A stretch of 64,000 nucleotides of DNA, from the NCBI GenBank assembly GCA_963836235.1, contig CAWIIP010000004.1, forward strand, positions 160,001-224,000, in the 5' to 3' direction. The DNA is from an uncultured Pseudomonadota bacterium. GTDB lineage: Bacteria; Oederibacteriota; Muellerivitia; Muellerivitales; Muellerivitaceae. Position numbers and translations under genes: made by a program. The number at the start of each line of letters is the position of its first letter. Position 1 is the stretch's first letter. The notes beneath the pieces are model-generated. The model worked only from the letters and a program-made list of their open reading frames with translations, searched no databases and had not been told where the DNA came from. Shown here in pieces: positions 35,761 through 49,799 of the stretch.

Positions 35761-36048
35761 ATGGATAGGAGAAAACCAGACCGCAGAAACCCAAATCAGG
35801 ATCAGCTCTTGTCTGACAAACAGGTTGCCCTGATGGCCGGGGTGCCGGTCAATACCGTGAGTTATTGGCGCTTGGCGGGTATGCTTCCGTTCGTGAAGCT
35901 CGGAAGGCATCCGAGGGTTTGGCTGTCCGTGTTCCAAAAAACATTCCACCAACCAAAATCAAATGGCCCTTGGGAACCATTGAGTGAAGGTGTTAATATA
36001 CAAACACAAAGTGCAGGTGGCATTAGGAGGAAACATGGCAAGACCTAA
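35761..36048 (+). CDS. xis: Excisionase-type HTH protein
   Basis: LLSDKQVALMAGVPVNTVSYWRLAGMLPFVKLG; directly upstream of the integrase. Confidence 0.75.
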   Translation: MDRRKPDRRNPNQDQLLSDKQVALMAGVPVNTVSYWRLAGMLPFVKLGRHPRVWLSVFQKTFHQPKSNGPWEPLSEGVNIQTQSAGGIRRKHGKT

Positions 36049-37144
36049 TGTACACGGATTACCGCAACATCTTCGAAAGGATGTGGCGGGATACTTTTTA
36101 GAGTATTACTTAAAAGAAGGAGGAATAAAAACTAGGAGAAGGGTCCGATTGGGACACATTCCTTTGGTCCAAGCCAAAAAATTACTGGCCCAAAACATGG
36201 CTGAGATTGTCGAGGGCAAGTTTTTATCAAGCGAAAAGGCGAAAGTCACATTTGCCGAATCCGCTGATTCGTTTTTGGCCTATTCCAAAGCCAGGAAAAA
36301 AAGCCACAGGAACGATCCACCGATCGTATCCCGGTTCAAGGCTTTTTTTGGAAACCGGTCTTTGGAAAGTTTGACCCCTGACCTCGTGGAGGCCTATTTG
36401 ATCCAGAGGCAACGGGATGGACAATTGAACCATAAGGGGAAGCCCATTACGGGAACCAGTTTGAACAAGGAAATTGCCTGCCTCAAGACGATAGTTCGGC
36501 GGGCGATGCTCAATGGACAGATTGATCGCAATCCGATTTTCGGGGTCCGCAAGTACAAGGAAGTACCTAGGAATAGGACCTTGAACCCGGAGGAGTTCCA
36601 GAAGCTTTTTGAGATGGCTACTCCCCGGTTGCGACCGATTATCGCGTTGGGCTACTACACCGGAATGAGGTGTGGGGAGGTCCTTGGTTTGAAGTTTACT
36701 CAACTGGACTTCAAACACAAAATCCTAGTTTTGGAAGCGTTGGACACAAAGACCATGGAGAGGAGGGAAATTCCCTTAAGTGACGCCTTGATCGGGTTGC
36801 TTAGGCAGGTTCCCCCGACCCTGGGAAGCCCCTACGTTTTCACATACAAAGGGAAACCCATGAAGAGCATCAAACGGGCTTTTAAGTGGGCTTGCCGTAA
36901 AGCGGGGATCGACAACTTTAGGTTCCACGATCTCAGACATTGTATGGTCACGAATTTCAGGAAGGCGGGGGTAAGTGACAACGTAATCATGTCGATTTCG
37001 GGCCATAAGACCCATTCGGTGTTCAGGCGGTATGACCGGGTGGATCGGGATGACCGGCATGGTGCCCTTCAAAAAGTTGAAATTTTGATAGACACGAATA
37101 AGACACTCGTAGAAAATCAGTGTCCCTCAGAGGGAGCTAAGTAG
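36035..37144 (+). CDS. int: Tyrosine recombinase/integrase
   Basis: TGMRCGE, FHDLRH, SGHKT, RRYD catalytic set; AGGAGG RBS before ATG 36035. Confidence 0.93.
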   Translation: MARPNVHGLPQHLRKDVAGYFLEYYLKEGGIKTRRRVRLGHIPLVQAKKLLAQNMAEIVEGKFLSSEKAKVTFAESADSFLAYSKARKKSHRNDPPIVSRFKAFFGNRSLESLTPDLVEAYLIQRQRDGQLNHKGKPITGTSLNKEIACLKTIVRRAMLNGQIDRNPIFGVRKYKEVPRNRTLNPEEFQKLFEMATPRLRPIIALGYYTGMRCGEVLGLKFTQLDFKHKILVLEALDTKTMERREIPLSDALIGLLRQVPPTLGSPYVFTYKGKPMKSIKRAFKWACRKAGIDNFRFHDLRHCMVTNFRKAGVSDNVIMSISGHKTHSVFRRYDRVDRDDRHGALQKVEILIDTNKTLVENQCPSEGAK

Positions 37145-37418
37145 CTCAAAAACCTTTTGAACAAAAGGGTTTTTGGTGGTTGTTGGTGAAGGGAAAAGAA
37201 CCGAGCCGTTTTCTTGTAAGCGGCAGGTCACCGGTCCGATTCCGGTCGCCAGCTCCATTTTTAAAAAAACTGTTCCCAGCAAGGTTTTAAAAGCCTTTGC
37301 TTGTAAGGGTTTCACGACCTAAACGGGCAAAGGCTCCTTTTTTTGAATTGATCGTCAATGATCATCAGCGATCCTAAAAACTCATAAAAAAGCAATTCGA
37401 TTGACACGTATATGACAG
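37091..37418. mobile_element. Attachment site with attP-like architecture
   Basis: tRNA core flanked by GACACGAATAAGACAC (37091-37106) and GACACGTATATGACAG (37403-37418), plus 10-bp-period GATC-containing repeats at 37348-37377. Confidence 0.7.
37213..37257 (+). tRNA. 3' half of tRNA-Thr(UGU) (att-site fragment, not a complete tRNA)
   Basis: CTTGTAA anticodon loop, GCGGC, AGGTC, T-stem ACCGG/CCGGT, acceptor strand CGCCAGC-T-CCA; no GCTGGCG 5' strand or D arm upstream. Confidence 0.85.
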
Positions 37419-37526
37419 GAAGATTTATCGAAATTCCTGTGGATATGAACTTGTCAACTTTTGCCGATGGGAATAAAGATAAAGGGTCTTTGGTGTCCCA
37501 TTAATCTTTGAAGAAGTCAAACCGCC

Positions 37527-39371
37527 ATGAATACCGGGAATTTATTCAAGAAGATCGAGAGCCACACCCCCCCTCTCTTAGTCGGTTTTGCCACTTATTC
37601 GGGCCTTAAATTCATCCTAGAGGCCTTTGGGGTAATAGGTGTCTCCGTCAATCCTTTCGACACAATTTCGATCCTTTCCGTGGGTTTTCTCTACATGTTT
37701 GAGAAGCATGTCCGCTTGGACCACCTCTTGGCCTTAGCCCCCGCCGTCATTGCATTAGCATTTTGCCATGACTTTTTCGGGGTGTTGTTGGGGACGGATG
37801 GGTTTACAGGGGATGTAGTAATGGGTATTTCCATCCTCATTGGTTTTTGCGTTTATTTCATCCATTTCACAACGGAAAAAATTGCGGAACAATCGGCGGA
37901 ATCCCCAAAGGAGGAGAAGGGGAAATATCCCCTTTACCTTGATTCCGAGGATAAGTATTTCATCCCAACGGAAATGCTCAAATACCACGCAGAGGTTATT
38001 GGATCTTCCGGCACCGGAAAGACCAACATCTTCAATCACCTAATCGAGCAAGGCATCAAGAATGGGATTGGAATGTTTGTATTTGACGCGAAGTCTAACT
38101 ACAACAAACACATTCCATATTTCGCATCAAAATATGGGAGGCTCCATGACCTGAAATATTTTGATTTAGCCGATGTGAAGAGGAGTCAGACCTATAACCC
38201 TGATTTCAAGGATAAGCCGGACGAGGTTTTCAACGGTCTCATGAAGTCGTTATTTTATGGCCCCGTAAAAGAGGAATATTACAGGGACCAAGCAAGCGAA
38301 GTTTTAAGCAATCTGACAAACCTTCTTTTTAAGGAATTTACCCATGTCACAAGGATGGATTATCAGAACCTGATTTCAAACGAGATCAGATCGTTCAAGA
38401 CAATCCAATGGCTTGCCACGAAATACGAAGACACGGTTTCAGGAAAATACTTTTTAGAAAAATGGATGCACATGTCCGAAAAGGACAGGGAATTAAACCT
38501 ATCCGGCCTGACCAGCAAGCTTTCCAGATTCACCAGCCGGGAATGGTCGCCATTAATCAACACCCTAAATCCAGAGATCAAAATGAGGGACGTAGTCGAA
38601 AAACAGCAGATATTCTTATTTGGCACATCTTCCTTGGTGAACCAGGAGGATTCAAAACCAGTGATTATTTCGGCTTTGGTGGACTTGGCCGGTGTAATTG
38701 GAAGACGCCTTATTGAGAAGCCCCAAAAACCCTTTTTTGTCTTTTTGGACGAGTTCTACACCGCCGCATATCCAGGATTGAATGACCTAATATCCCTTGG
38801 ACGGGAGGCCAATGTTTGCTTTTTCTTGGCCCATCACAGTTTGGGCCAGCTTGGGGCGGTCAGTCAGGAGTTTAAGGACGACATATTAACGAATACGAAC
38901 CACAAGATCGTGATGAACATCACCGAAAAAGATACGGTGGATTTCTTCGCCTCCATATTCGGAACTAAGGTAACGAAAAAGGATGTTTATTCCTTTGATA
39001 CCAGATCAGCCCAGGCGAGGGGTAGGACTGAAAAGCCGGATGAGGAATTCATCATCCATCCCAATTACCTTAGGCTTATGAGGCGCGGGGAAGCTGTCTG
39101 TCGAATCGTTTATGTTACCGGTCCCAGGATATTTAAAATGAAACTCAAAGAAGTCAAAAGCCCTCCTGCCAGCTTTGATTATGTGGGCTGTGTTCCTACT
39201 AGGAACAATCATTTGAAGCCAAATGAATACAACAAGATCGTTGTTCCCAAAGTCGAAACAACCCCGAAATCCAAACCCAAAAAAGAGGGGGATCAGGTTC
39301 CTCCCACCAAATCCGTTCCTGAACCGAAACCCAAAACAAGTGGATTGAGCCACGGAGAAAATGCTTCCTAA
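37527..39371 (+). CDS. Type IV coupling protein (VirD4/TraD-like)
   Basis: N-terminal TM helices, HAEVIGSSGTGKT, VFDAK, TYNP, FLDEF, GREA. Confidence 0.85.
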   Translation: MNTGNLFKKIESHTPPLLVGFATYSGLKFILEAFGVIGVSVNPFDTISILSVGFLYMFEKHVRLDHLLALAPAVIALAFCHDFFGVLLGTDGFTGDVVMGISILIGFCVYFIHFTTEKIAEQSAESPKEEKGKYPLYLDSEDKYFIPTEMLKYHAEVIGSSGTGKTNIFNHLIEQGIKNGIGMFVFDAKSNYNKHIPYFASKYGRLHDLKYFDLADVKRSQTYNPDFKDKPDEVFNGLMKSLFYGPVKEEYYRDQASEVLSNLTNLLFKEFTHVTRMDYQNLISNEIRSFKTIQWLATKYEDTVSGKYFLEKWMHMSEKDRELNLSGLTSKLSRFTSREWSPLINTLNPEIKMRDVVEKQQIFLFGTSSLVNQEDSKPVIISALVDLAGVIGRRLIEKPQKPFFVFLDEFYTAAYPGLNDLISLGREANVCFFLAHHSLGQLGAVSQEFKDDILTNTNHKIVMNITEKDTVDFFASIFGTKVTKKDVYSFDTRSAQARGRTEKPDEEFIIHPNYLRLMRRGEAVCRIVYVTGPRIFKMKLKEVKSPPASFDYVGCVPTRNNHLKPNEYNKIVVPKVETTPKSKPKKEGDQVPPTKSVPEPKPKTSGLSHGENAS

Positions 39372-39389
39372 GAAGGATTAGTAATACTT

Positions 39390-40202
39390 ATGAGCGATTT
39401 TCTTGAGATTAACGAAAACGAAGCCGAACATCTTGCATGGATTCACTCAAATAAATTTACGATTCCCGACGTCTTTCATCAAAAATTTTTTAAGTCAAGT
39501 TACAGGTACGCTTGTCGAGTCCTCAGAAAATATTATCTAAAAAAAGGTTTTCTGAGTATGACAAAAGCAGAAGGGACAACCTTTCAAGATTCAATATATT
39601 TTCTTACGACAAACGCCTTAAGAAGTTTGGATTCCAAAAACAAAATCTTGGTTCGAGGGACAAAATTTCCGATAAAAGTGAATCCTTATGAAAGGCAACA
39701 TGATCTGATGGTTCAGGAGATTAGGGTTGCAATAGAGGCAAGCGAGGACTTATCCGATATATTTTGGGTAACGGATTTTGAAATGCGGTCTGGAATAACC
39801 CCTTCCATTAAAGCCAGATTCGTTGAGGGAAAATTTGACAAAAACGAATGGAGGTCAAATGGTTTGAACCCCAACAGCACTGGCCGTAGAACACCTGATG
39901 GTTATTTCGAAGCGGATTTGGAGGGGCAGAGGGAGGGATTTACCCTTGAGTTTGAACATCATCCTTACGACGACAGAAAATTCAATCGAATGGCATGGTA
40001 TTTAAAACAGTATTTTCCTAATGCTACAAAACTTGTCGTTTCCGCTAGCCGGGAGAATTCAATACGGATGATAAAAGCCCTTCAAACAAAAATTAAAAGC
40101 GGGGAACAAGATAAGTGGTTTGTTACGGATTTTGAAAAAATTAAAACACTACCATTCAAGAAAATATGGCATCAACTTAACCATCCATTGGAGAAAGTGT
40201 AA
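39390..40202 (+). CDS. Replication-relaxation (Replic_Relax-like) family protein, putative relaxase
   Basis: wHTH-like N-terminus, HDLMVQEI, PDGYF, LEFE; directly after the coupling protein. Confidence 0.7.
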   Translation: MSDFLEINENEAEHLAWIHSNKFTIPDVFHQKFFKSSYRYACRVLRKYYLKKGFLSMTKAEGTTFQDSIYFLTTNALRSLDSKNKILVRGTKFPIKVNPYERQHDLMVQEIRVAIEASEDLSDIFWVTDFEMRSGITPSIKARFVEGKFDKNEWRSNGLNPNSTGRRTPDGYFEADLEGQREGFTLEFEHHPYDDRKFNRMAWYLKQYFPNATKLVVSASRENSIRMIKALQTKIKSGEQDKWFVTDFEKIKTLPFKKIWHQLNHPLEKV

Positions 40203-40206
40203 CGGT

Positions 40207-40941
40207 TTAATCTTTATCCCTTTTTATAAAAGCTATGCTTTCAAAAAGTCTAGAGGCGTAGGCGTCTGCTGGAATTTTTACCCATGCTGGATTTATTTTA
40301 AGAATCCATAAAAAAATCAAAATGAGATCAAAAATAAATAAACCGGTTGTAATTTCTTTAATTGCAATTCCCCCACGTAAGTTTAAAGTTATTTCGAATA
40401 GTTGAAAAAAAGAAAGAGAAAATAGTATAAAAAGTGCAAAAGGTTTCATGGCCCACAGGTTCCGACGAAACCCATAACTCACGTTTTCTGTAAAGAGGAT
40501 CGAGAACTTTTTGGTGTCCCTGGTTCTTTCGATGAGGAAACGACAGAAGCTTTCGTAAATTTCATCTGCAAGTTGTGGATTCTTATTTTCAAAAGCTTTT
40601 GTTAATTTTTTTCTAATTTTTAGGTTTTTAGAGAGTTCAGTTAAATATCGTTTGTGTGTTATGGGGTCTAGCCATGTGTTTCGGAATCTTAGAATGGATA
40701 TACTTGGTTTTCCGGCCCACCTCTTAAATAACCAAGCTTCTTTTCGCTTTCCAGCATCGCGACCCGCTTCCCCTAAAAAGTGAATAATTCCGAATGAGGT
40801 AAGTATGGAGATAATGGATTTACGTTCAATCCAAAGCTCTGGGAACCTAATAATTAAAAAAAGGATTATGGGAAATAAAACAATAAGGGAGGCCAAAAAC
40901 CTAGCTTTATAGGCATAAAAGGCACTTGAAACAGTTGTCAT
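40207..40941 (-). CDS. Four-TM membrane protein, putative defence effector
   Basis: 2+2 TM helices flanking a soluble region with ENVSYGFRRNL; divergent from the MBL-E2/E1-JAB operon. Confidence 0.55.
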   Translation of the reverse strand: MTTVSSAFYAYKARFLASLIVLFPIILFLIIRFPELWIERKSIISILTSFGIIHFLGEAGRDAGKRKEAWLFKRWAGKPSISILRFRNTWLDPITHKRYLTELSKNLKIRKKLTKAFENKNPQLADEIYESFCRFLIERTRDTKKFSILFTENVSYGFRRNLWAMKPFALFILFSLSFFQLFEITLNLRGGIAIKEITTGLFIFDLILIFLWILKINPAWVKIPADAYASRLFESIAFIKRDKD

Positions 40942-41017
40942 TAGAACCTATTTTCATTGGGGTAAAAAATTAAAGGCGACAAACCTATACCATAATATAA
41001 CCATTTAAGGAGTATGT

Positions 41018-42097
41018 ATGCGTAGCATCACTTTTTTCCAGGCTGGCAATGGGAATTTTTCGCTTGTCCAAGCTGATAACACAAACATTTTGATGGATAT
41101 GAAAAGCACCGAAGATAAGACCTCTTGGGAAATTGTGAAACCGTTTTTAAAGAAAGATGGAAAAAAATACATTTTGGACGTTCTTTCCGTATCGCATGGG
41201 GACCAGGACCATTGTGGTGGCTATACAGAGTTTCAAAAGTTAATGGATGAAGGAAAACTAGTAATCGGTTCTATTTGGCACCCCGACTATGACCGCACTG
41301 AAGTTTCTGAAGAAGAAGAATTGCCTGAGGATTATCTTATGCTCCATAAAGAAATACTTCGGCGTCAAAAAATCAAAAATCCTCAATTTGGGGAAATCCA
41401 AATACCTTTAACAACATTAGATGACGAAAAATCAGCTTTTAACGGTTTACAATTGCCCACTGATTTAAAACTGAAGGTTTTAAATCCTCATCATAAAGAC
41501 CAAGGTGATACTGAGTGGGACGTAAATGATTCAAGTCTAGTAATAAAATTATCCATTTCCGGCTTAAGAGTTTTATTTACTGGGGATTCGAGTTCGGAAG
41601 TTTGGCAAACAAGAATTATTCCTCTGACATTAAAGAAAAACGATAAATCAGATTGGGCAGAAGCTCAAATTTTAGTTGCATCACATCATGGTTCTGCTAC
41701 TTTTTTTGGCGTCGATAGAGAAACTGTTCTTAATGCCAAACCAACTCCTGAAAATTACAAGGCACTAGATTATATTAAACCTGAATTTTTGGTTCTTTCT
41801 GCATCGACAAAATTTCCGACGAGTGGGGATGAATCTGGAGATCTACCCCCTCACTATGCGGCTTGGAAGTGGTATCACAAATGGTTTAGAGAAAATAAGA
41901 ATGTTAAGGAAAGCGATAACCATCCCGATTTGTTCAAATATACGGCTAATGGGCACGTTCGTTTGCAATTGGGCGACGATAAAGAATGGAGATTTAAAGA
42001 AAATTGGACGCCTGATGATGATCCTGATAAAGGTAGCGATGTCCATTTTACAAATAAAGGCGGGGGAACTAAGCGCCAAGAATCAGGGTATGCGTGA
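41018..42097 (+). CDS. ComEC/Rec2-like metallo-beta-lactamase-fold hydrolase
   Basis: SHGDQDHCGG, NDSSLV, LFTGD, ASHHGS. Confidence 0.85.
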   Translation: MRSITFFQAGNGNFSLVQADNTNILMDMKSTEDKTSWEIVKPFLKKDGKKYILDVLSVSHGDQDHCGGYTEFQKLMDEGKLVIGSIWHPDYDRTEVSEEEELPEDYLMLHKEILRRQKIKNPQFGEIQIPLTTLDDEKSAFNGLQLPTDLKLKVLNPHHKDQGDTEWDVNDSSLVIKLSISGLRVLFTGDSSSEVWQTRIIPLTLKKNDKSDWAEAQILVASHHGSATFFGVDRETVLNAKPTPENYKALDYIKPEFLVLSASTKFPTSGDESGDLPPHYAAWKWYHKWFRENKNVKESDNHPDLFKYTANGHVRLQLGDDKEWRFKENWTPDDDPDKGSDVHFTNKGGGTKRQESGYA

Positions 42098-42105
42098 ATT
42101 GAATA

Positions 42106-43914
42106 ATGACTTCTTTCCCTCCCGGCCTTTCAGAGGCAATTCAAAAAGGTTTATTAAAAGCTGCTTCAACACAATGTTGTGAATTTATTTCTGAAATTCG
42201 GCCTTCGACTAATGAGGGCTATTTTGAAATAGAAGCCATAATTGGTCCTGCGGATGTACCTCTAGGTTCTAGCCCACCAAAATATAAGGTCCGTTTTTTA
42301 ATACCAAAATCCTTCCCATATGACGTAATAGAGACCGTTCCCTTAGACCCAGCGTTAAAGTGGAACCAGCACCAATTTGCTGATGGAGATTATTCAAGGG
42401 CGAATATTATTTGTCCCCCGTCATTAAATAATATACCTGCTGAAGCATTATTCTTCCCTTATATCGAACATGCCTATAGATGGATTACTGATTGTTTATC
42501 GGGGACGCTCATAAAACCATTGGAAGATTATGAATTTCCGCATTTGGGGGAGGAGCCTAGAGGCAACTTCAATTTTTATATTGATATAGACAATTTTCCC
42601 CATTCATGGATTTCAAAAAATAAATTTGGTATGGCCTGGACCACTGAAATAAACGGAAGTAAATCAGGAAAGCTTTATCGTGTAAGGGAACTTGAGGCAA
42701 TAAACCCGCTTGAAGGCCCCAAAAACATAGAATCCAGCATACGAGACAATTGTTTTGTTAACGGGGAAACAAAGGGTTGGATTCCATGGATTTTCGGTGG
42801 CAATCCAGTCTTTAAAGTTCCACATCAACGTTTTCAAAAGCTTTCGGAATTTAGCTTAGAGTTTAGAGATGAATTTTTAAATGCTTGTAAAAATGTAATG
42901 GAAAAACAGTTTACTTTGCCGTATTTACTTTTAGCGTTTGAGATCCCACTTAAATGGTCGGGTACACCAAACAGAATATATTGGACTGCAATGAGTTTGA
43001 AGAAATTTAATGGTTCTTCATTTAAGTGTCCTCCGGGTTTTCGTCCGAAGACCTCTGATTTCAAAACGTGGCCTAATGTTACTCAATTTTTTAGAGAAAA
43101 CAATCCATTGTTACTAAACCATTGCGAAGATATTTCTCCTAACACAATGACATTGAGGAGCGGAGAAGAAAACGTGGATATGAAGTCGAAAAAAATTGTT
43201 ATTGTGGGTGTTGGTTCGCTTGGTTCAATGTTAACAAAATCGATCTCGAAATTAAGCCCGGCTAAAATCAAATTGATTGACAGTGGAAGGATTGAACCGG
43301 GTAATTTAATTCGGCACGAGGCATTAACTTCTCAAGTCGAGGAATTTAAAGCTGATGCAATGAGAATGTTAATAAAACCAATGTTTAAATCCTCTGAGGT
43401 GGTTTCCCTCGCGATTGATATTGTTTCTGGTTTGCCAAAATTTATTGAAGCTATTGCTGATACTGACTTAATACTTGATTGTACTGGAGACGCTGGTTCA
43501 AATTATATGTTGCTAAGTAATTCAAAATTTTTGACTCACAAAGTAGCAATCGCATTTATTAAACCCGGACCTGCTTTTGGGGTTTTAATTTTGAAAAACC
43601 CCGGCCTTAATATTTCTCCCCGCGCCTGTATTGATAAACTTAAAGAAGGAATTCCGGCAGATGTTTGGGAAAGATATAACAGTTCAGATTCTACGGAAAG
43701 CCAAGAAGTAAGAACTGCACCTGGTTGCTATTCAACTACCTTTTCCGCCCCTTATTATAGAATTAGATTGTTGGCCGATATGTTTCTTGCATCTATTCTT
43801 GGATGGTTGAATGGGGGAGCTTCCTCTAGTTTTATTTTATTGTTTGACCAAGTTGTTTCCGAAAGTGGATTAGGCGTAGATATTAAACGCTATGAAGTAA
43901 AAATTAATGATTGA
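42106..43914 (+). CDS. E2-E1 (ThiF) fusion, Cap2-like conjugation enzyme
   Basis: N-terminal E2-like FLIPKSFPY...HQ...IICPP; C-terminal GVGSLGS, D-SGRIEPGNLIRH, LDCTGD, PGCYSTTF. Confidence 0.82.
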   Translation: MTSFPPGLSEAIQKGLLKAASTQCCEFISEIRPSTNEGYFEIEAIIGPADVPLGSSPPKYKVRFLIPKSFPYDVIETVPLDPALKWNQHQFADGDYSRANIICPPSLNNIPAEALFFPYIEHAYRWITDCLSGTLIKPLEDYEFPHLGEEPRGNFNFYIDIDNFPHSWISKNKFGMAWTTEINGSKSGKLYRVRELEAINPLEGPKNIESSIRDNCFVNGETKGWIPWIFGGNPVFKVPHQRFQKLSEFSLEFRDEFLNACKNVMEKQFTLPYLLLAFEIPLKWSGTPNRIYWTAMSLKKFNGSSFKCPPGFRPKTSDFKTWPNVTQFFRENNPLLLNHCEDISPNTMTLRSGEENVDMKSKKIVIVGVGSLGSMLTKSISKLSPAKIKLIDSGRIEPGNLIRHEALTSQVEEFKADAMRMLIKPMFKSSEVVSLAIDIVSGLPKFIEAIADTDLILDCTGDAGSNYMLLSNSKFLTHKVAIAFIKPGPAFGVLILKNPGLNISPRACIDKLKEGIPADVWERYNSSDSTESQEVRTAPGCYSTTFSAPYYRIRLLADMFLASILGWLNGGASSSFILLFDQVVSESGLGVDIKRYEVKIND

Positions 43915-44503
43915 AAAACCAAGTAGCAATTACAGTTTTAATTTTAAAACAGGCAGTCTCGAAGTGCATTTATCAAATTCTTTAATAGGTCAGCTAAGTC
44001 GTTTATCGAAATCCGCTTTGCCTAATGAAACTGGCGGAACTCTTCTGGGCTATTACAATGATTCAATGAAGATTGCAAATATTACTGAAATTTTGAAATC
44101 TGCCGGAAAACCCAAATCAACTCCAACTTCTTTTATTAGGCCAAGTGATACCAAGGAAACTGAGTCAAATAGAAGAATTTTGGCTTCACGTGGGCGTCTT
44201 TTTTATTTAGGCGAATGGCATTCACATCCAAAAGGGCCACCTTATCCAAGCCCTAATGATTTAATGTCTTGCTTTGAATTAGTTAAATATTCCAGAGTCC
44301 CGACCGAAACACCAATAATGCTTATAATTGGAAATGATCTGTCTGCTAATGTAAACAATATGGCTTGCTGTCTATTGGTGGCGAAAAAAGGCGCATGCGA
44401 AATTCAAAGAGCAGAAAGAATAAACGAACCGATACCACTTAAGAACCAAAGAAAACTTCGATTATTTACCAACGTAAAACTGCGAAAAAAATTGCATCTT
44501 TAA
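43907..44503 (+). CDS. JAB/Mov34 isopeptidase, Cap3-like
   Basis: PNETGG, YLGEWHSHP, PSPND. Confidence 0.88.
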   Translation: MIEKPSSNYSFNFKTGSLEVHLSNSLIGQLSRLSKSALPNETGGTLLGYYNDSMKIANITEILKSAGKPKSTPTSFIRPSDTKETESNRRILASRGRLFYLGEWHSHPKGPPYPSPNDLMSCFELVKYSRVPTETPIMLIIGNDLSANVNNMACCLLVAKKGACEIQRAERINEPIPLKNQRKLRLFTNVKLRKKLHL

Positions 44504-44548
44504 TCGAATAAGAATTAGAACCAAGTACGATTACGGGAGGTGTAAGGA

Positions 44549-45238
44549 ATGTGCGTTTGTTACCAGCTAAACCTTCCCATTAAAAACATCGCAAAGGCCT
44601 TCAAGGCAAAACCGCCCAAAGTGACCTGGAATCCCTTGGACAAAATCCGGCCTTCCAACCTGGTTCCCGTGGTTATGGTTAATCCTCCAACAGGGGAGAG
44701 GGTTATTAAGCTAATGACGTGGGGAATGCCTTTTTACGATTTTCAAAAAAAGAAATTGGTTAAGCACCACCTCTTTAACGCTAGGTCCGAAACCATCACC
44801 GAAAAGAAAACCTTCAAAAGCCACTTCCAAAAGGACCGTATCTTGGTTCCGGTTTTTCCCGCCTTTGTTGAATGGCAGGACACCGGAGAAAAGCGAAAGA
44901 AGCCTTATGTGATTGGCCTAAAATCGAATGAGCCCTTTGCTTTTGCGGGTATATGGGGGAAATGGAACATGACCATCGAGGACGACGAAACCATCGAAAA
45001 GAAGTTGAAGGCAAATCCCAAGTATGTCCCGAAAAAAGAGGAAATCGAGTATTACTCAGTTATCACGACAACCCCAAACGAAGTAGTGGCTCCTATTCAC
45101 AACCGTATGCCTTGCATTCTGGACTCCCGGAACTACGATGCTTGGTTGGACCCCAAAATTGACCCGGAGATACTCAGACCCCTTTTGAAGCCCTTCCCAG
45201 CCGAGAAGATGCAAGCTAAACCAACGGGGAAAACCTAA
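44549..45238 (+). CDS. SOS response-associated peptidase (SRAP/YedK/HMCES family)
   Basis: N-terminal Met-Cys, NARSET, FVEW, FAFAGIW, IHNRMP. Confidence 0.88.
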   Translation: MCVCYQLNLPIKNIAKAFKAKPPKVTWNPLDKIRPSNLVPVVMVNPPTGERVIKLMTWGMPFYDFQKKKLVKHHLFNARSETITEKKTFKSHFQKDRILVPVFPAFVEWQDTGEKRKKPYVIGLKSNEPFAFAGIWGKWNMTIEDDETIEKKLKANPKYVPKKEEIEYYSVITTTPNEVVAPIHNRMPCILDSRNYDAWLDPKIDPEILRPLLKPFPAEKMQAKPTGKT

Positions 45239-45275
45239 AAAAAGAATATTCGATTTATAGAGAAAGCTTTATTTT

Positions 45276-45584
45276 ATGAAGAAAAAAAGTTCCTCCCAAA
45301 AAGATCTATTCAATCAAGAACCAGAAAATCCCGATATGGTTCGTTTTATTAAACGAGATCGTAAATGGTCCCGTGAAATTCGTGAGTTGATTGCCACCAC
45401 ATCTTGTCCTCATTGTGGTTCTCGAAAAATCACTTACTTTGAATGGGGCCAAGGCGGTTTTGGACCAGAACACGATAAGCTGGTAGCGGAAGACCTTCTC
45501 ATCCAGAGGGGTTGCATCATGCAGAAGGATGAACCGGAATTTACCTGCCGCGATTGCAAAAAGAATTTCTCTAAAAATCCTTGA
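45276..45584 (+). CDS. Small Zn-ribbon protein
   Basis: CPHC ... GC ... CRDC. Confidence 0.6.
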   Translation: MKKKSSSQKDLFNQEPENPDMVRFIKRDRKWSREIRELIATTSCPHCGSRKITYFEWGQGGFGPEHDKLVAEDLLIQRGCIMQKDEPEFTCRDCKKNFSKNP

Positions 45585-45593
45585 AGTAGGCGT

Positions 45594-46419
45594 TTGAATA
45601 TGAAAATGAAATTTGCTCTCGTAAATGAAGAACGATTGGAGCCCCAGCCGGGCCTCAAAGGTAAGTGTTTCCTTTGTGAAAAACCCGTAGTTGCGAAGTG
45701 CGGAAAGATTAGGATTCCGCATTGGGCTCACCTTGGAAAGCTCGAATGTGACCCCTGGTGGAAGAACAAAACTGATTGGCATATTGATTGGCAAAATAAA
45801 TTTCCTAAGTCTTGGCAGGAATTTGTTCACCAAGCCACAAACGGTGAAAAACACTTTGCTGATGTAAAAACAGACCAAGGTTGGGTTCTTGAATTCCAAC
45901 ATTCCTTCATCAAACCGGACGAAAGAAATTCACGAAATAACTTTTACCCAAAAATAGTTTGGGTTGTAAACGGAATGAGGCGGAAGAATGACCTAAAGAA
46001 ATTTTTTGAAGTTGTAAAAAATAATGGTAAACAACTCAACCCAAAGGCACCAATATTGAAGTTAATGGGTTACTGGGATGAGTCTGCTCTTCTTCGTGAC
46101 TGGGCGGATAGTCCTGTGCCAGTATTCTTTGATTTCGGAGGAACTTCAGACCTTTGTTATTTACTTCCCAAGAGTGCCGATGGATTTCCTGATGTTGTAT
46201 GGTTCCCACGAACGTACTTCCTTGAACTATTTCTGAATGGGGCACAGAAAGTCAAAGATATGAACTTTTGGTTTTCGGATTTTATATCGGGCAATTAGGC
46301 AAAACCGCAGCCCCAAACACCAAGCCAACCTCCTCCTCAAGTACAAATTGATCCCAACAGCCTTCAAGCTTACGTTCAACGTAAAATAGCCAGGGAGAAT
46401 TGATTTCGGAGACGATTTT
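45594..46419 (+). pseudogene. CoiA-like nuclease copy 2, C-terminal tail interrupted by in-frame TAG and TGA
   Basis: Close paralog of 6723-7514 (ADVKTDQGWVLEFQHSF identical); ORF stops at TAG 46296-46298 but the frame continues AKPQPQ...REN*FRRRF*, ending like copy 1 (RRRF). The nuclease core is intact, so it may still be functional. Confidence 0.65.
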
Positions 46420-46751
46420 AAGGGGCTTAACGCGAAAATATGCTGACCGCAGCGACAGTCTGGGTAGGTAAGTATCCCTTGGCTAAGGACGAGGAACAGT
46501 ACAAAGACCAATCAGCAGAGTTAGTATTTATTACTGGTCGCAGTGTATGGCCGTACCGAATCAGTGAAGTGGTAGAAGCTTTTTGGGATCAAACTTATGA
46601 AGGAGCTGTTAGCACCATCCCTGTTCCACTGATAGTTTGAAGCTGTTTCTGCACTTCGAAGCCCGAAATTGTAAGCAATAAACCCCGAACGATGGCTCTG
46701 GTGAGATAATAGAGTGCTTTTATACTAGGGAGATATATTCGGCGGTAAGTC

Positions 46752-48227
46752 TTGAAAATCCTCATCGACACCAACATCGTTATTCCTCTTGAACCGGCAT
46801 CCACAGGCGACTTAGAGCCGGGTACCATCCTTGCCGCTGAATTTCATCGTTTGGCCGCCAAAGCGGGTCACCAGCTATTCATCCATCCCTTAATCCGACT
46901 GGATATTGATCGTGACCGCGATAGTGCTCGGGCTGACCTGCGTCGACAGTTAATTGGGAAATATAGCCAGTTAAATAACCCCCCAACCATTATTCAAAGA
47001 CCGATTCCGCCATTAGAGGCACCTGCCCAAGATAGTAATGATTGGGTTGATGTAAACCTATTGGTGGCATTGGACTCTAATGCCGTGGATATATTGGTGA
47101 CCGATGATGAAGATATCCATCGGAAGGCCTTGAAGGTTGGTTTGCAATCCAAGGTTGCGCGACTGCCAGATATGGTGGCGTCGCTAAAAGACCTGTTTGA
47201 TAAGGTTCATGAGCCGCCACCGGCAGTTGACTTCACTGAAGCTTATACTTTGAACGAGAGCGACCCGATATTTAATAGCGTGAGAGAGAGCTATGGAGCT
47301 GAGTTTGATCCTTGGTTACAGAAATGCAAGGCCCAACATCGGCACTGTTTTGTCATTCAGGATAAGTCGGCGGGAAAGTATGTCGGTGTGGCTATTCTGA
47401 ATAGAGAAGATGGCGCTTATGGTCTTGTGGGGAAGACCTTAAAACTCTGTACTTTTAAAATAGCGGACGAATATGGTGGGTACCGATACGGGGAATTGTT
47501 GTTGAAAGCTGTTTTTGATTATGCGGTAAACAACCAATACGATGGCGTATTTGTAACGGCTTATCCTGACAAAGATCGTTTGATTCGAACGTTTCAAGAT
47601 TTTGGGTTTCAAATTGTTGAGCAAGGTGCCCAAGTGGTTCTTGTGAAGCGATTCACTTATACACGGGCTGAATACGATTTGGTTGAACCGCTAGTTTTCC
47701 ATACTCTTTATGGGCCGATGGCGACTAAATTTGAGGGAAACAACACTCACATTGTCCCAATTCAGCCGGAATTTCATAAGCTCTTGTTCCCGGAATATGA
47801 ACCACAACCCGAACTGTTCCCAGGCCAGCATCCCTGTGGGAACAGTATCAAGAAGGCTTACCTGTGTCATTCGGCTACCCGTCAATTAAAACCAGGGGAT
47901 AATCTTTTGTTCTATCGGTCCGAGGATGATAAAGCGATAACAGCGGTGGGAATCGTTGAGGAGTTCATTGTTTCTTCTTCTGCGGATGAGATTGCCCAAT
48001 ATGTAAGCACAAGAACGGTCTATTCTTATGATGACATTAAAGCTATGTGCGAAACGGAAACATTGGCGATTAAATTCCGACTTGTTAAAATCGTTAAGCC
48101 GGTTATCCCGCTTAAGGACTTAAAGAAAAATAAGGTGGTAAAAGAACATCCGCAGGCTATTCACAAGATTAAAACAGGGAGTGCTGAATGGGTAAGAGAA
48201 GCGACGAGCCTTCAACCGAAGTATTGA
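46752..48227 (+). CDS. PIN - GNAT acetyltransferase - PUA/EVE-like fusion protein
   Basis: KILIDTNI...ND..D...VTDD (PIN), LKLCTFKI..GYRYGELLL (GNAT), GNSIKKAYLC..PGDNLLFYRS..AITAVG (PUA-like). Confidence 0.78.
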   Translation: MKILIDTNIVIPLEPASTGDLEPGTILAAEFHRLAAKAGHQLFIHPLIRLDIDRDRDSARADLRRQLIGKYSQLNNPPTIIQRPIPPLEAPAQDSNDWVDVNLLVALDSNAVDILVTDDEDIHRKALKVGLQSKVARLPDMVASLKDLFDKVHEPPPAVDFTEAYTLNESDPIFNSVRESYGAEFDPWLQKCKAQHRHCFVIQDKSAGKYVGVAILNREDGAYGLVGKTLKLCTFKIADEYGGYRYGELLLKAVFDYAVNNQYDGVFVTAYPDKDRLIRTFQDFGFQIVEQGAQVVLVKRFTYTRAEYDLVEPLVFHTLYGPMATKFEGNNTHIVPIQPEFHKLLFPEYEPQPELFPGQHPCGNSIKKAYLCHSATRQLKPGDNLLFYRSEDDKAITAVGIVEEFIVSSSADEIAQYVSTRTVYSYDDIKAMCETETLAIKFRLVKIVKPVIPLKDLKKNKVVKEHPQAIHKIKTGSAEWVREATSLQPKY

Positions 48228-48691
48228 TTTCGATTTACCAGAAATATGCGGAAGCCATATTGAAAGGTGAGAAAATCATTGAATTTCGCAAAGCGCAATT
48301 CCCAAAAAACGTATCCCGTGTCTATCTATATTCCACGAGCCCCGTTCAAAAGGTCATCGGTCATTTTGATGTAAAAGACGTTCTTCGAGCTAGTCCTCGG
48401 AGTTTGTGGAACGAATACGGGAAACATGGCTCGATCGGTTATGCTGATTATGTTAATTACTATGGAGACGCGGAAGAGGCTTGTGGAATACTTGTTAAGA
48501 GTGTCGTTCGATATTTGCGACCGGTGGATTTAAAGGAAATTGATCCCTCAATGTCGGTACCACAAAGTTATCGTTACCTTACTGAGGATCTTATTGAAAA
48601 GCTGGAAAGTAAATCTTTAAAAAATCGATCAAGCTATTTTTCACGAATAGTTTCCTCTGCATTTGGATTGGGAAAGATGTTTGCGAGGTAA
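48188..48691 (+). CDS. ASCH-domain protein
   Basis: ISIYQKYAEAILKGEKIIEFRK, YSTSPVQKVIG, PQSYRY. Confidence 0.85.
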   Translation: MGKRSDEPSTEVLISIYQKYAEAILKGEKIIEFRKAQFPKNVSRVYLYSTSPVQKVIGHFDVKDVLRASPRSLWNEYGKHGSIGYADYVNYYGDAEEACGILVKSVVRYLRPVDLKEIDPSMSVPQSYRYLTEDLIEKLESKSLKNRSSYFSRIVSSAFGLGKMFAR

Positions 48692-48953: not shown

Positions 48954-49799
48954 ATGGAAGCCAATGACGATATGTTTACAACTATTCTTGGTTTAATTAT
49001 TAGTCTGATAATTTCATGGAGCATTGGGCTTTTCCTTCCGATTCTGATTCGCTACGTTTTTTATAAACGGGCCCTTTCAAAAAAAGAGGCTGGTTGGTTT
49101 GCCTTTGCGAATTCTTTTTTAAATTTTATCCTCTCAGTGACAATGGCAATCGCATTCCCCGATTATTGGAAACTTTCCAACGAAAAAAACTTGTTATTGC
49201 CTTACGTTATCTTATTTTTTGGTGCCCGGTGGGTAATGACCAGGCCAACAGCTCCCCCGAAAATTAAAAAGGCTGAAGAAAAAAAGGTGCCGGTGGAGCA
49301 TTTAAGTTTGGGACGGAAGACTTTTCGATTTTTTTGGAAAACCGTTTTTTGTTTGGCTGGAACCTGGTTGGGGGTTCTATGGATAATCACTATTTACGCG
49401 ATGCTGAAGAAAGACATTGAAAACGAATTATTTACTTCCGGCTTTGTAATGTTTGTTTCCCGGTCTAGCTCCTTGGCGCTAATAACCTTTGAGTTGATAA
49501 TCTCCCTCTATCTGTTTTCGTATATTATTCAAAAAACTCTGTTGGTGAAAATTATTAGATTTATTGAATGGATAATTTTTATAATCTTTTTGATTATGGG
49601 AACGGTAGGGATTGCAAATTACTTATTTATGTTTTTGAAGGGGGAAGGGTTTTACCCGGGAACTATTATTTTCAATCTGTTTTTTGTTGGTATTTGTTTA
49701 TTGGTTTTGTGGCATCTGTTTAAGATTCCGGCTTCGACGAGAATTTATCAAAATTTGAAAATTAGTTGGACCAACAATAAAGCTTTAAAAATGCCATGA
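48954..49799 (+). CDS. Polytopic membrane protein of unknown function
   Basis: About seven hydrophobic segments. Confidence 0.6.
   Translation: MEANDDMFTTILGLIISLIISWSIGLFLPILIRYVFYKRALSKKEAGWFAFANSFLNFILSVTMAIAFPDYWKLSNEKNLLLPYVILFFGARWVMTRPTAPPKIKKAEEKKVPVEHLSLGRKTFRFFWKTVFCLAGTWLGVLWIITIYAMLKKDIENELFTSGFVMFVSRSSSLALITFELIISLYLFSYIIQKTLLVKIIRFIEWIIFIIFLIMGTVGIANYLFMFLKGEGFYPGTIIFNLFFVGICLLVLWHLFKIPASTRIYQNLKISWTNNKALKMP

Follow-up and report, generated by a model that had tools for sequence, protein, structure and literature searches.

A divergent split-gene relative of the 6A-MBL anti-phage systems, with a candidate membrane-protein partner, in an uncultured bacterium

Operons in which a metallo-β-lactamase (MBL) fold enzyme is paired with a ubiquitin-type conjugation apparatus were classified by Iyer, Burroughs and Aravind (2006), in whose survey operon type 6a is described as a specialized MBL plus a triple-module protein that joins ubiquitin-conjugating (E2), ubiquitin-activating (E1) and JAB peptidase modules, usually encoded by two genes (PMC1779556). 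The 6A-MBL system is termed the 'type II MBL pathway' by Ye et al. (2024), who cite van den Berg et al. (2024) (PMC11601596), and is named as a phage-tested defense in two other sources (PMC13276650; 10.1101/2025.09.30.679545), the latter of which places it among known jumbo-phage defenses. The present analysis concerns a cassette of four genes in a 64,000-nucleotide stretch of DNA (the window; contig CAWIIP010000004.1 of assembly GCA_963836235.1, positions 160,001 to 224,000, forward strand) from an uncultured Pseudomonadota bacterium assigned by GTDB to the Muellerivitaceae. The genes encode an MBL hydrolase, an E2-E1 fusion related to Cap2 and a JAB peptidase related to Cap3 of CBASS (antiphage signaling based on cyclic oligonucleotides), together with a divergently oriented multi-pass membrane protein designated TM4. 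The favored explanation, to which a probability of roughly 0.55 is assigned, is that the cassette belongs to the 6A-MBL group as a divergent member with split genes and is carried on an integrative mobilizable island; in this cassette the C-terminal tail of MBL would be conjugated and the membrane protein would be the output. The parts of the cassette are as follows, in window coordinates.

40207-40941, minus strand: TM4, a 244-residue multi-pass membrane protein, identified as an open reading frame (ORF) without a Pfam, PADLOC or NCBIfam family.
40942-41017, no strand: divergent intergenic region of 76 bp between TM4 and MBL, with AAGGAG located 7 bp before the MBL ATG.
41018-42097, plus strand: MBL, a 359-residue ComEC-type MBL-fold metallo-hydrolase, assigned from Pfam, PADLOC, NCBIfam and Foldseek.
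42032-42094, plus strand: disordered C-terminal tail of MBL, residues 339-359, ending in Gly-Tyr-Ala, assigned from model confidence and the motif in homologues.
42106-43914, plus strand: E2-E1, a 602-residue Cap2-like fusion, assigned from Pfam, PADLOC, NCBIfam and a Cap2 profile match.
43907-44503, plus strand: JAB, a 198-residue Cap3-like JAB/JAMM peptidase with an intact motif, assigned from Pfam, PADLOC and NCBIfam.

The ORF scan returned four ORFs at 40207-44503 with exactly the ends given in the first-pass annotation of this DNA. That annotation had described MBL, E2-E1 and JAB as an AT-rich operon devoid of both a cGAS/DncV-like nucleotidyltransferase (CD-NTase) and a ubiquitin-fold gene, and the ORF, domain and base composition scans agree on each count. 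The MBL and E2-E1 genes are separated by 8 bp, E2-E1 and JAB overlap by 8 bp, and TM4 lies 76 bp from MBL. The tight spacing of the plus-strand genes therefore leaves no space for a ubiquitin-like gene between them, and the 12 ORFs scanned at 35984-48691 include no such gene. No CD-NTase was matched by Pfam in the same 12 ORFs or by PADLOC in the 10 ORFs around the cassette. The GC content of the four genes is 0.35-0.39 (0.351 for TM4), compared to a value of 0.454 over the window and of 0.45-0.48 in the integrase, TraG-like and SRAP (SOS-response-associated peptidase) genes that flank the cassette. A single weak promoter-like site was noted in the TM4-MBL region at 40926-40954 on the plus strand; nine promoter-like sites were found in the region compared to 15 expected from shuffled sequence, i.e., fewer, and promoter and terminator scans overall gave a result no better than shuffled sequence.

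The view that MBL, E1/E2 and JAB operons are a known defense-associated kind is sustained by their correspondence to the 6a operon type and to the curated NCBIfam models for 6A-MBL, namely NF058524 ('6A-MBL_enzyme', cut-off 220 bits) and NF058523 ('6A-MBL_cap2_3', cut-off 320 bits). The best NCBIfam matches of all three window enzymes are to these models. MBL matched the former at 1.4e-31 with 109.9 bits in two stretches, and the latter was matched by E2-E1 (7.7e-31, 107.3 bits, model positions 213-531) and by JAB (1.3e-26, 93.4 bits, model positions 538-664). Further likenesses to 6A-MBL are a ComEC-like MBL gene that immediately precedes the ligase gene on the same strand, the lack of a ubiquitin-like gene, an MBL tail with an aromatic-Gly/Ala pair at or near its end, and carriage on mobile elements. 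Unlike in 6A-MBL, the window JAB is the product of its own gene instead of the third module of one polypeptide, the window MBL subfamily has other members that are paired with an E2-only gene or lack a ligase altogether, and the membrane partner lies outside the two-gene description given in the published survey. A canonical copy was recovered from another genome of the same family (G003; genomes and loci are designated here by G and L numbers, respectively): its MBL (L141) passes the model cut-off with 302.4 bits and is accompanied by a 738-residue triple fusion of 282 bits. This was the single useful match in a search of the whole phylum with PADLOC model PDLC00827, which otherwise returned mostly housekeeping ThiF/MoeB proteins and also fires in 10 of 14 control genomes, so that the number of its matches carries no information. 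As its scores lie below the model cut-offs and JAB is a separate gene, the window cassette is, as judged from its sequence, a divergent split-gene variant of 6A-MBL that stands outside the curated equivalog.

The cassette also resembles Type II CBASS. In CBASS, Cap2 acts on the C-terminus of its operon partner. The window encodes a Cap2-like E2-E1 with both putative catalytic cysteines, a Cap3-like JAB with a JAMM motif, and a partner enzyme whose C-terminal Gly/Ala tail is disordered. Unlike Type II CBASS, the window has no CD-NTase and an MBL hydrolase takes its place; a nucleotide signal is neither known nor predicted. More specifically, the E2-E1 protein matched Pfam ThiF (8.3e-13) and PADLOC E1-E2 (2.7e-34), and a profile of its relatives matched the Cap2 structure 7TO3 at 7.1e-38. 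The putative E2 cysteine, C103 in NIICPP, is invariant among relatives, the putative E1 cysteine, C541 in PGCY, is kept in 6/6 full-length relatives that were aligned, and a nucleotide loop, GVGSLGS, is located at residues 368-374. The JAB protein matched Pfam Prok-JAB (1.9e-16), PADLOC JAB (2.1e-32) and, below the model cut-off, NCBIfam Cap3 (7.8e-8). It possesses an intact Glu41 (in ETGG) and an intact H-x-H-x7-S-x2-D motif at 105-118 (HSHPKGPPYPSPND).

The window MBL is a stand-alone protein of 359 residues in which no hydrophobic stretch was found. The match to Pfam Lactamase_B was weak (21.2 bits, under the 22.7 cut-off). PADLOC MBL models matched at 1e-15, the closest being those for MBL proteins accessory to Lamassu, DRT and Avs1. 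A profile assembled from 65 MBL relatives matched the MBL domains of ComEC in the PDB at 3e-7. The AlphaFold2 model of MBL (pLDDT confidence 88.4, pTM 0.88) retrieved the ComEC MBL domain 9ic4 as the best Foldseek match (E 1.3e-14, TM-score on target 0.77) with the phosphorylcholine esterase Pce ranked second. The metal-site motif H60-x-D62-x-D64-H65, along with H88, D190 and H223-H224, is retained, and in the family alignment D64, H65, H88, D190, H223 and H224 are invariant with H60 and D62 nearly so. MBL is thus probably an active phosphodiesterase or nuclease, as judged from the retained site. The MBL nuclease domain of ComEC/Rec2 is the closest solved relative by sequence and fold and bears the same H-x-D-x-D-H type of metal motif. 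Unlike ComEC, the window MBL is free-standing and soluble, is not fused to a competence channel, and has ~100 extra C-terminal residues that include a conserved PPHYAAWKWY segment and a conjugation-type tail. The protein search yielded 86 proteins at E ≤ 1e-3, of which 74, counting the window protein itself, are close relatives with 44-100% identity. Within the 31 genomes searched, MBL was present in three, one being the source itself (G000) and the other two giving weak matches (~1e-6).

The MBL protein terminates in ...KGGGTKRQESGYA. The first-pass annotation had drawn attention to this tail as flexible, a description borne out by the AlphaFold2 model in which the last 21 residues are predicted to be disordered (pLDDT <50 for 339-350 and 352-359). 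Lack of conservation had been named beforehand as possible grounds for rejecting a role for the tail; instead, the motif [FYWH][GA] is kept in the last eight residues of 71/74 close homologues, with the exact C-terminal end at the motif in 41, compared to a background of 457/2888 internal 8-mers of the same proteins (15.8%). Six loci, the window included, have E2-E1 together with an MBL end that is complete; MBL ends on the motif in four of these and extends 1-2 residues past it in two. In the E2-only loci (L007, L008, L011, L075, L078, L087, L095, L102 and 11 others) MBL runs 1-4 residues beyond the motif in 19/19 cases, though these loci have no peptidase gene. The MBL proteins of canonical fused operons end in ...FGHA, ...FGAE, ...YGSKPI, ...FGR, ...PRAG and ...HGAS, and tails that terminate near Gly/Ala in this way fit trimming by the fused JAB. 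It was observed separately that the stand-alone E2 proteins themselves end in a similar sequence, W-Y-G-[DE]-E-Y-x-H. Prediction of a complex between MBL and E2-E1 from alignments gave a score of 0.00 and a mark of 0.32, values that weigh neither way on binding.

In the mechanism proposed for the cassette, the ComEC-type phosphodiesterase or nuclease would occupy the position that the cyclase holds in CBASS. The Cap2-like E2-E1 would adenylate the flexible C-terminal tail of MBL, which ends in Tyr-Ala, and the tail would pass via the E1 cysteine C541 to C103 of E2 and then be ligated to a target, which would raise or place MBL activity. The Cap3-like JAB would undo the link and, for relatives with tails that continue 1-4 residues beyond Gly/Ala, probably trims the excess. 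The divergent TM4 would be a true fourth component and a membrane-acting output, an assignment made because the same slot elsewhere holds a patatin lipase or PDC-M48A. The notion of MBL as a modifier conjugated via its terminal Ala, with the membrane protein as a fourth component, was put forward in the first-pass annotation and is supported by these sequence comparisons; the idea of MBL as a conjugated modifier is itself already in the literature (Ye et al., PMC11601596). The folds, the intactness of the catalytic motifs, the conservation of the tail and the linkage of the genes are shown by the analysis, and from these we infer conjugation of MBL, an MBL substrate, communication between MBL and TM4, and anti-phage activity of the window copy.

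The E2-E1 and JAB proteins might instead act on another substrate, such as a protein of the host or of a phage or an unrecognized small protein, with the MBL tail being kept for a different reason, for example autoinhibition or binding of the membrane protein. The comparative nature of the case for MBL conjugation leaves room for this explanation, as does the occurrence of the motif plus 1-4 residues in ligase-free (L005, L009) and E2-only relatives, from which it follows that the motif is not tied to E1. However, no ubiquitin-like gene fits among the packed genes or is present in the 12 neighboring ORFs, and MBL is the invariant neighbor of the ligase in both split and fused forms. Moreover, an exactly terminal Ala or Gly is found in 4/6 E2-E1 loci compared to 0/19 E2-only loci, and the homologous Cap2 is described as targeting the C-terminus of its operon partner (PMC11601596). 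Action on a different substrate is therefore considered improbable.

The linkage of TM4 with MBL was assessed in 49 loci, comprising 12 close genome loci and 37 close metagenome loci, in which ORFs were clustered by BLASTP and then compared with hidden Markov models; distant MBL loci (L013-L066 and L104-L127, mostly 22-35% identical and partial) were left out of the count. The neighbor of MBL belonged to the TM4 family in 16/49 loci, was a 168-residue membrane protein matching PADLOC PDC-M48A (6.5e-55) in 8/49, a patatin-like lipase (Pfam, 1e-18 to 1e-20) in 8/49 and another multi-pass ORF in 3/49. No such neighbor was seen in 14/49; in 13 of these a contig end cuts off a flank, and L086 alone retains both. 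The upstream gene is visible in seven of the nine loci that carry E2-E1, and encodes TM4 in five, another transmembrane protein in one and neither in one. In most of these loci TM4 is co-directional with, and directly upstream of, MBL; L067, Rhodococcus and Acinetobacter sp. M131 share the divergent arrangement of the window. Four canonical fused operons (L141-L144) that were selected via MBL alone also each have a third gene, which specifies a patatin in L141 (G003) and L142 (Rhizobium, where it is split over two ORFs) and TM4 in L143 (Emticicia) and L144 (Rhodococcus). The window TM4 shares 34% identity with the L143 protein (2e-46) and 28% with that of L144 (3e-23). Overall, TM4 genes were located within or beside canonical fused 6A-MBL operons on plasmids of Emticicia, Nostoc, Rhodococcus and Acinetobacter. 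TM4 homologues were found on 51 plasmid records, and an MBL gene is situated ≤~2.2 kb away in 13/13 that were checked, among them pairs of MBL and TM4 without a ligase in Microvirga, Bacillus cereus and Clostridium perfringens (L146, L148, L149). Absence of this linkage had been set down in advance as a possible refutation of a role for the membrane protein; the linkage holds, both in the 16/49 loci and in the canonical fused operons.

TM4 might alternatively be a mere neighbor that lies outside the system. Its gene is read from the other strand and hence is not part of the transcript of MBL, E2-E1 and JAB, and both NCBIfam and the survey of Iyer et al. (PMC1779556) give 6A-MBL two genes. Against this stand the span of the TM4-MBL linkage across phyla and three ligase architectures, the proximity of MBL in every plasmid record checked, the recurrence of the same divergent layout in Acinetobacter sp. 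M131 and Rhodococcus, and the low GC content (0.351) that TM4 shares with the cassette. Mere adjacency is thus barely credible.

The MBL family is found in four layouts: E2-E1 with JAB, a fused triple module, a stand-alone E2, and no ligase. The last is represented by L005 and L009, which have a patatin, and by L146, L148 and L149, which have TM4. The stand-alone E2 genes are of two kinds (PADLOC E2, 1.9e-23 and 3e-38). A 140-residue protein is labeled E2-like because PADLOC E2 models match it; in profile-profile comparison with the E2-E1 family it gave a weak result (E 0.017, probability 2.7%) in which the two cysteines were nevertheless aligned. A CapP-type regulator is encoded upstream in some copies (2.9e-56 in G003; Peptidase_M78 in L001). 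Thus, the relatives of the window cassette resemble CBASS in the presence of CapP, in E2-only variants, and in patatins or small membrane proteins at the place of the effector. Unlike CBASS, the patatins and TM4 gave 0 matches to PADLOC models of CBASS effectors. The cassette further resembles the PADLOC candidate PDC-M48 (M48A plus M48B) in the pairing of an MBL-fold protein with a small multi-pass membrane protein, and the 168-residue protein that takes the place of TM4 in eight related loci is an M48A member (6.5e-55). Unlike PDC-M48, the window TM4 has no M48A match, the window MBL matches M48B weakly (7.6e-5, 20 bits), and the window has ligase genes of which the candidate has none.

Three other features of the related loci were noted. 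Several loci (L079 and L091, minus strand; L144, 3093-4136; L147, 309-1379) encode, besides the tailed MBL, a second, shorter MBL paralogue (302-356 residues) adjacent to the patatin or TM4 gene. An AAA_21 ATPase together with RloB, or just RloB where the contig ends, is encoded immediately upstream of MBL in 9/49 loci (L009, L010, L072, L075, L077, L078, L081, L084 and L092), and the pair is downstream in L008; these genes either constitute a second defense pair moving along with the MBL system or belong to a shared island. A protein of 203-209 residues that is divergent from MBL in five loci (L003, L076, L079, L090 and L091) has an N-terminal region resembling a helix-turn-helix (HTH) and weak matches (~1e-4) to PADLOC models of CARF3/AbiEi type, and may be a regulator.

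The TM4 protein has hydrophobic stretches at 9-39, 164-182 and 191-221, two of which are long enough for two helices each; about four transmembrane helices are a reasonable estimate from this hydropathy scan. The AlphaFold2 model is all-helical (pLDDT 94.5). No family label was obtained for the window copy in Pfam, PADLOC or NCBIfam scans. A profile search collected 97 family members, the only source name for which was 'hypothetical protein' and for which no Pfam family was recorded in the search listing, and a Pfam scan of 48 members revealed no common family. Conserved features are a Gly-Lys pair after the second transmembrane helix, W-G-G-x-P-T, and Y-G-F-R-R-N-L-W before the last helices. 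A subgroup (L001, L069, L070) has weak matches to Csx27 and PDC-M48A. Two candidate folds were rejected: for TolQ/ExbB/MotA the best Foldseek match in the PDB was only E 0.21 with TM-scores of ~0.25, and for G-protein-coupled receptor helices the best structural alignment in VIA-align (Z 7.8, root-mean-square deviation 6.3 over 146 residues) is at chance level for helical bundles. A search of the ESM Atlas with TM4 returned unnamed clusters only.

The roles of the two proteins might be reversed, such that MBL is the terminal nuclease that destroys phage DNA on its arrival or during replication, TM4 is a sensor or anchor that keeps MBL at the inner membrane, the site of phage DNA entry, and E2-E1 and JAB tune MBL through its tail. 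ComEC nuclease domains as the closest solved relatives in sequence (3e-7) and fold (E 1.3e-14) fit this assignment, as do the nearest PADLOC models, which represent MBL proteins accessory to Lamassu, DRT and Avs1. The ligase-free pairs of MBL and TM4 (L146, L148, L149) likewise resemble defense pairs that consist of a membrane sensor and a soluble effector, of which Kiwa is a comparison. Csx27, to which some TM4-family members have a weak match (4.9e-8), is a Cas13b-associated membrane protein. However, a patatin lipase replaces TM4 in 8/49 loci and in 2/4 canonical operons, and such an enzyme would be an odd sensor or anchor but is a classic effector. Furthermore, Cap2 and Cap3 in CBASS act on the sensor enzyme and not on the effector. 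Role reversal is the foremost of the alternatives and is nevertheless considered unlikely. The Cap2/Cap3 analogy and the patatin exchange favor MBL as the regulated upstream enzyme with the membrane protein as output; the likeness to the ComEC nuclease and the precedents of membrane sensors with soluble effectors favor the opposite. The position of MBL in a layout like that of type I/II CBASS backs the earlier heading under which MBL replaces the CD-NTase, and is compatible with either protein as the sensor and the other as the killer.

A number of observations weigh against the favored explanation of a divergent 6A-MBL member with a conjugated tail and a membrane output. The 109.9 bits of the window MBL fall short of the 220-bit cut-off of NF058524, the 107.3 bits of E2-E1 and 93.4 bits of JAB fall short of the 320-bit cut-off of NF058523, and the window MBL is merely ~24% identical to canonical 6A MBL proteins. 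The case for conjugation at this locus is one of comparison, and the extended tails in E2-only loci without a peptidase gene are unaccounted for by the trimming idea. The closest structural relative of MBL is a nuclease domain, that of ComEC, which suits the role of signal generator no better than that of terminal effector. TM4, which would have to be activated by MBL, has no recognizable ligand-binding domain, and its fold has no PDB match. In addition, the locus counts overstate independence, since near-duplicates and short contigs make up many of the 49 loci.

The genes upstream of the cassette form the backbone of an island at 35761-40202, in which a small HTH protein was also observed, and include the following.

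35984-37144, plus strand: tyrosine integrase, assigned from Pfam.
37527-39371, plus strand: TraG/VirD4-like coupling protein, assigned from Pfam.
39390-40202, plus strand: weak MobC-like protein (NCBIfam MobC_subf, 1.8e-4).

The HTH, integrase, coupling and MobC-like genes suggest an integrative mobilizable element. The integrase is 55% identical to that beside the canonical 6A-MBL of the same-family genome G003. No tRNA gene was found in 30000-64000 of the window, and the attachment site was not located for that reason. Downstream, an SRAP gene of normal GC content (0.465) lies at 44549-45238, 45 bp after JAB. SRAP (L143, 10430-11158) and ArdA genes also follow the canonical 6A-MBL and TM4 operon of the Emticicia plasmid, and the SRAP gene is probably part of the mobile-element backbone and outside the system. 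The interval 45276-46298 encodes a 102-residue zinc-ribbon protein and then a 234-residue protein with a CoiA-like N-terminal domain (4.3e-6). At 46752-48691 the gene for a PIN-GNAT-EVE protein overlaps that for an ASCH protein, the two corresponding to PADLOC PDC-M11A/B (2.9e-169 and 1.1e-40). A multi-pass membrane protein of 281 residues is encoded just after PDC-M11 at 48954-49799, in a second AT-rich patch (GC ~0.37-0.39).

With this setting in mind, the cassette might serve the mobile element itself, be it for entry exclusion, for competition between plasmids or for the processing of DNA as it is transferred. It lies between the MobC-like/TraG-like genes and the SRAP gene, canonical 6A MBL genes are present on 282 plasmid records of which 139 are typed conjugative, the Emticicia system adjoins ArdA and SRAP genes, and MBL resembles ComEC, which is a DNA-uptake protein. 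Nevertheless, this explanation is very improbable: 6A-MBL is named as a phage-tested defense (PMC13276650; 10.1101/2025.09.30.679545), the defense candidate PDC-M11 is encoded downstream of the window cassette, related loci are located amid restriction, AAA_21/RloB and SIR2 genes that are typical of defense islands, and defense cargo on mobile elements is the rule.

The MBL systems may be viewed more broadly as a full parallel to CBASS. According to this tentative and rather doubtful extension, MBL would be both the infection sensor and the signal generator, and its hydrolytic product or the ligated enzyme would trigger interchangeable effectors that attack the membrane, namely TM4, PDC-M48A or patatins. 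The same doubtful extension would make the forms of the family an effector-only, an E2-only and an E2-E1 plus JAB version. Literature searches, to whose coverage the primary 6A-MBL paper does not belong, found no text on a membrane or patatin component of MBL systems. Van den Berg and coworkers are said to have performed the primary phage test of 6A-MBL in 2024. The regular third component and the series of CBASS-like architectures may be new, unless they are described in that primary paper.

The family offers three handles for further work. The first is the conserved aromatic-Gly/Ala tail, the exact exposure of which goes with the presence of E1. The second is the unannotated membrane partner, which is interchangeable with lipases and so suggests that the system acts at the membrane. 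The third is the existence of natural minimal versions (MBL plus TM4, and MBL plus E2 plus a transmembrane protein) that would be easier to reconstitute than the fused form. If the parallel with CBASS is true, the published two-gene description of 6A-MBL would be incomplete and the TM4 family, with 97 members, would be a new class of defense effector. Moreover, if MBL replaces the cyclase as a signal-making sensor, the systems would provide a second, non-nucleotidyltransferase route to CBASS-like immunity.

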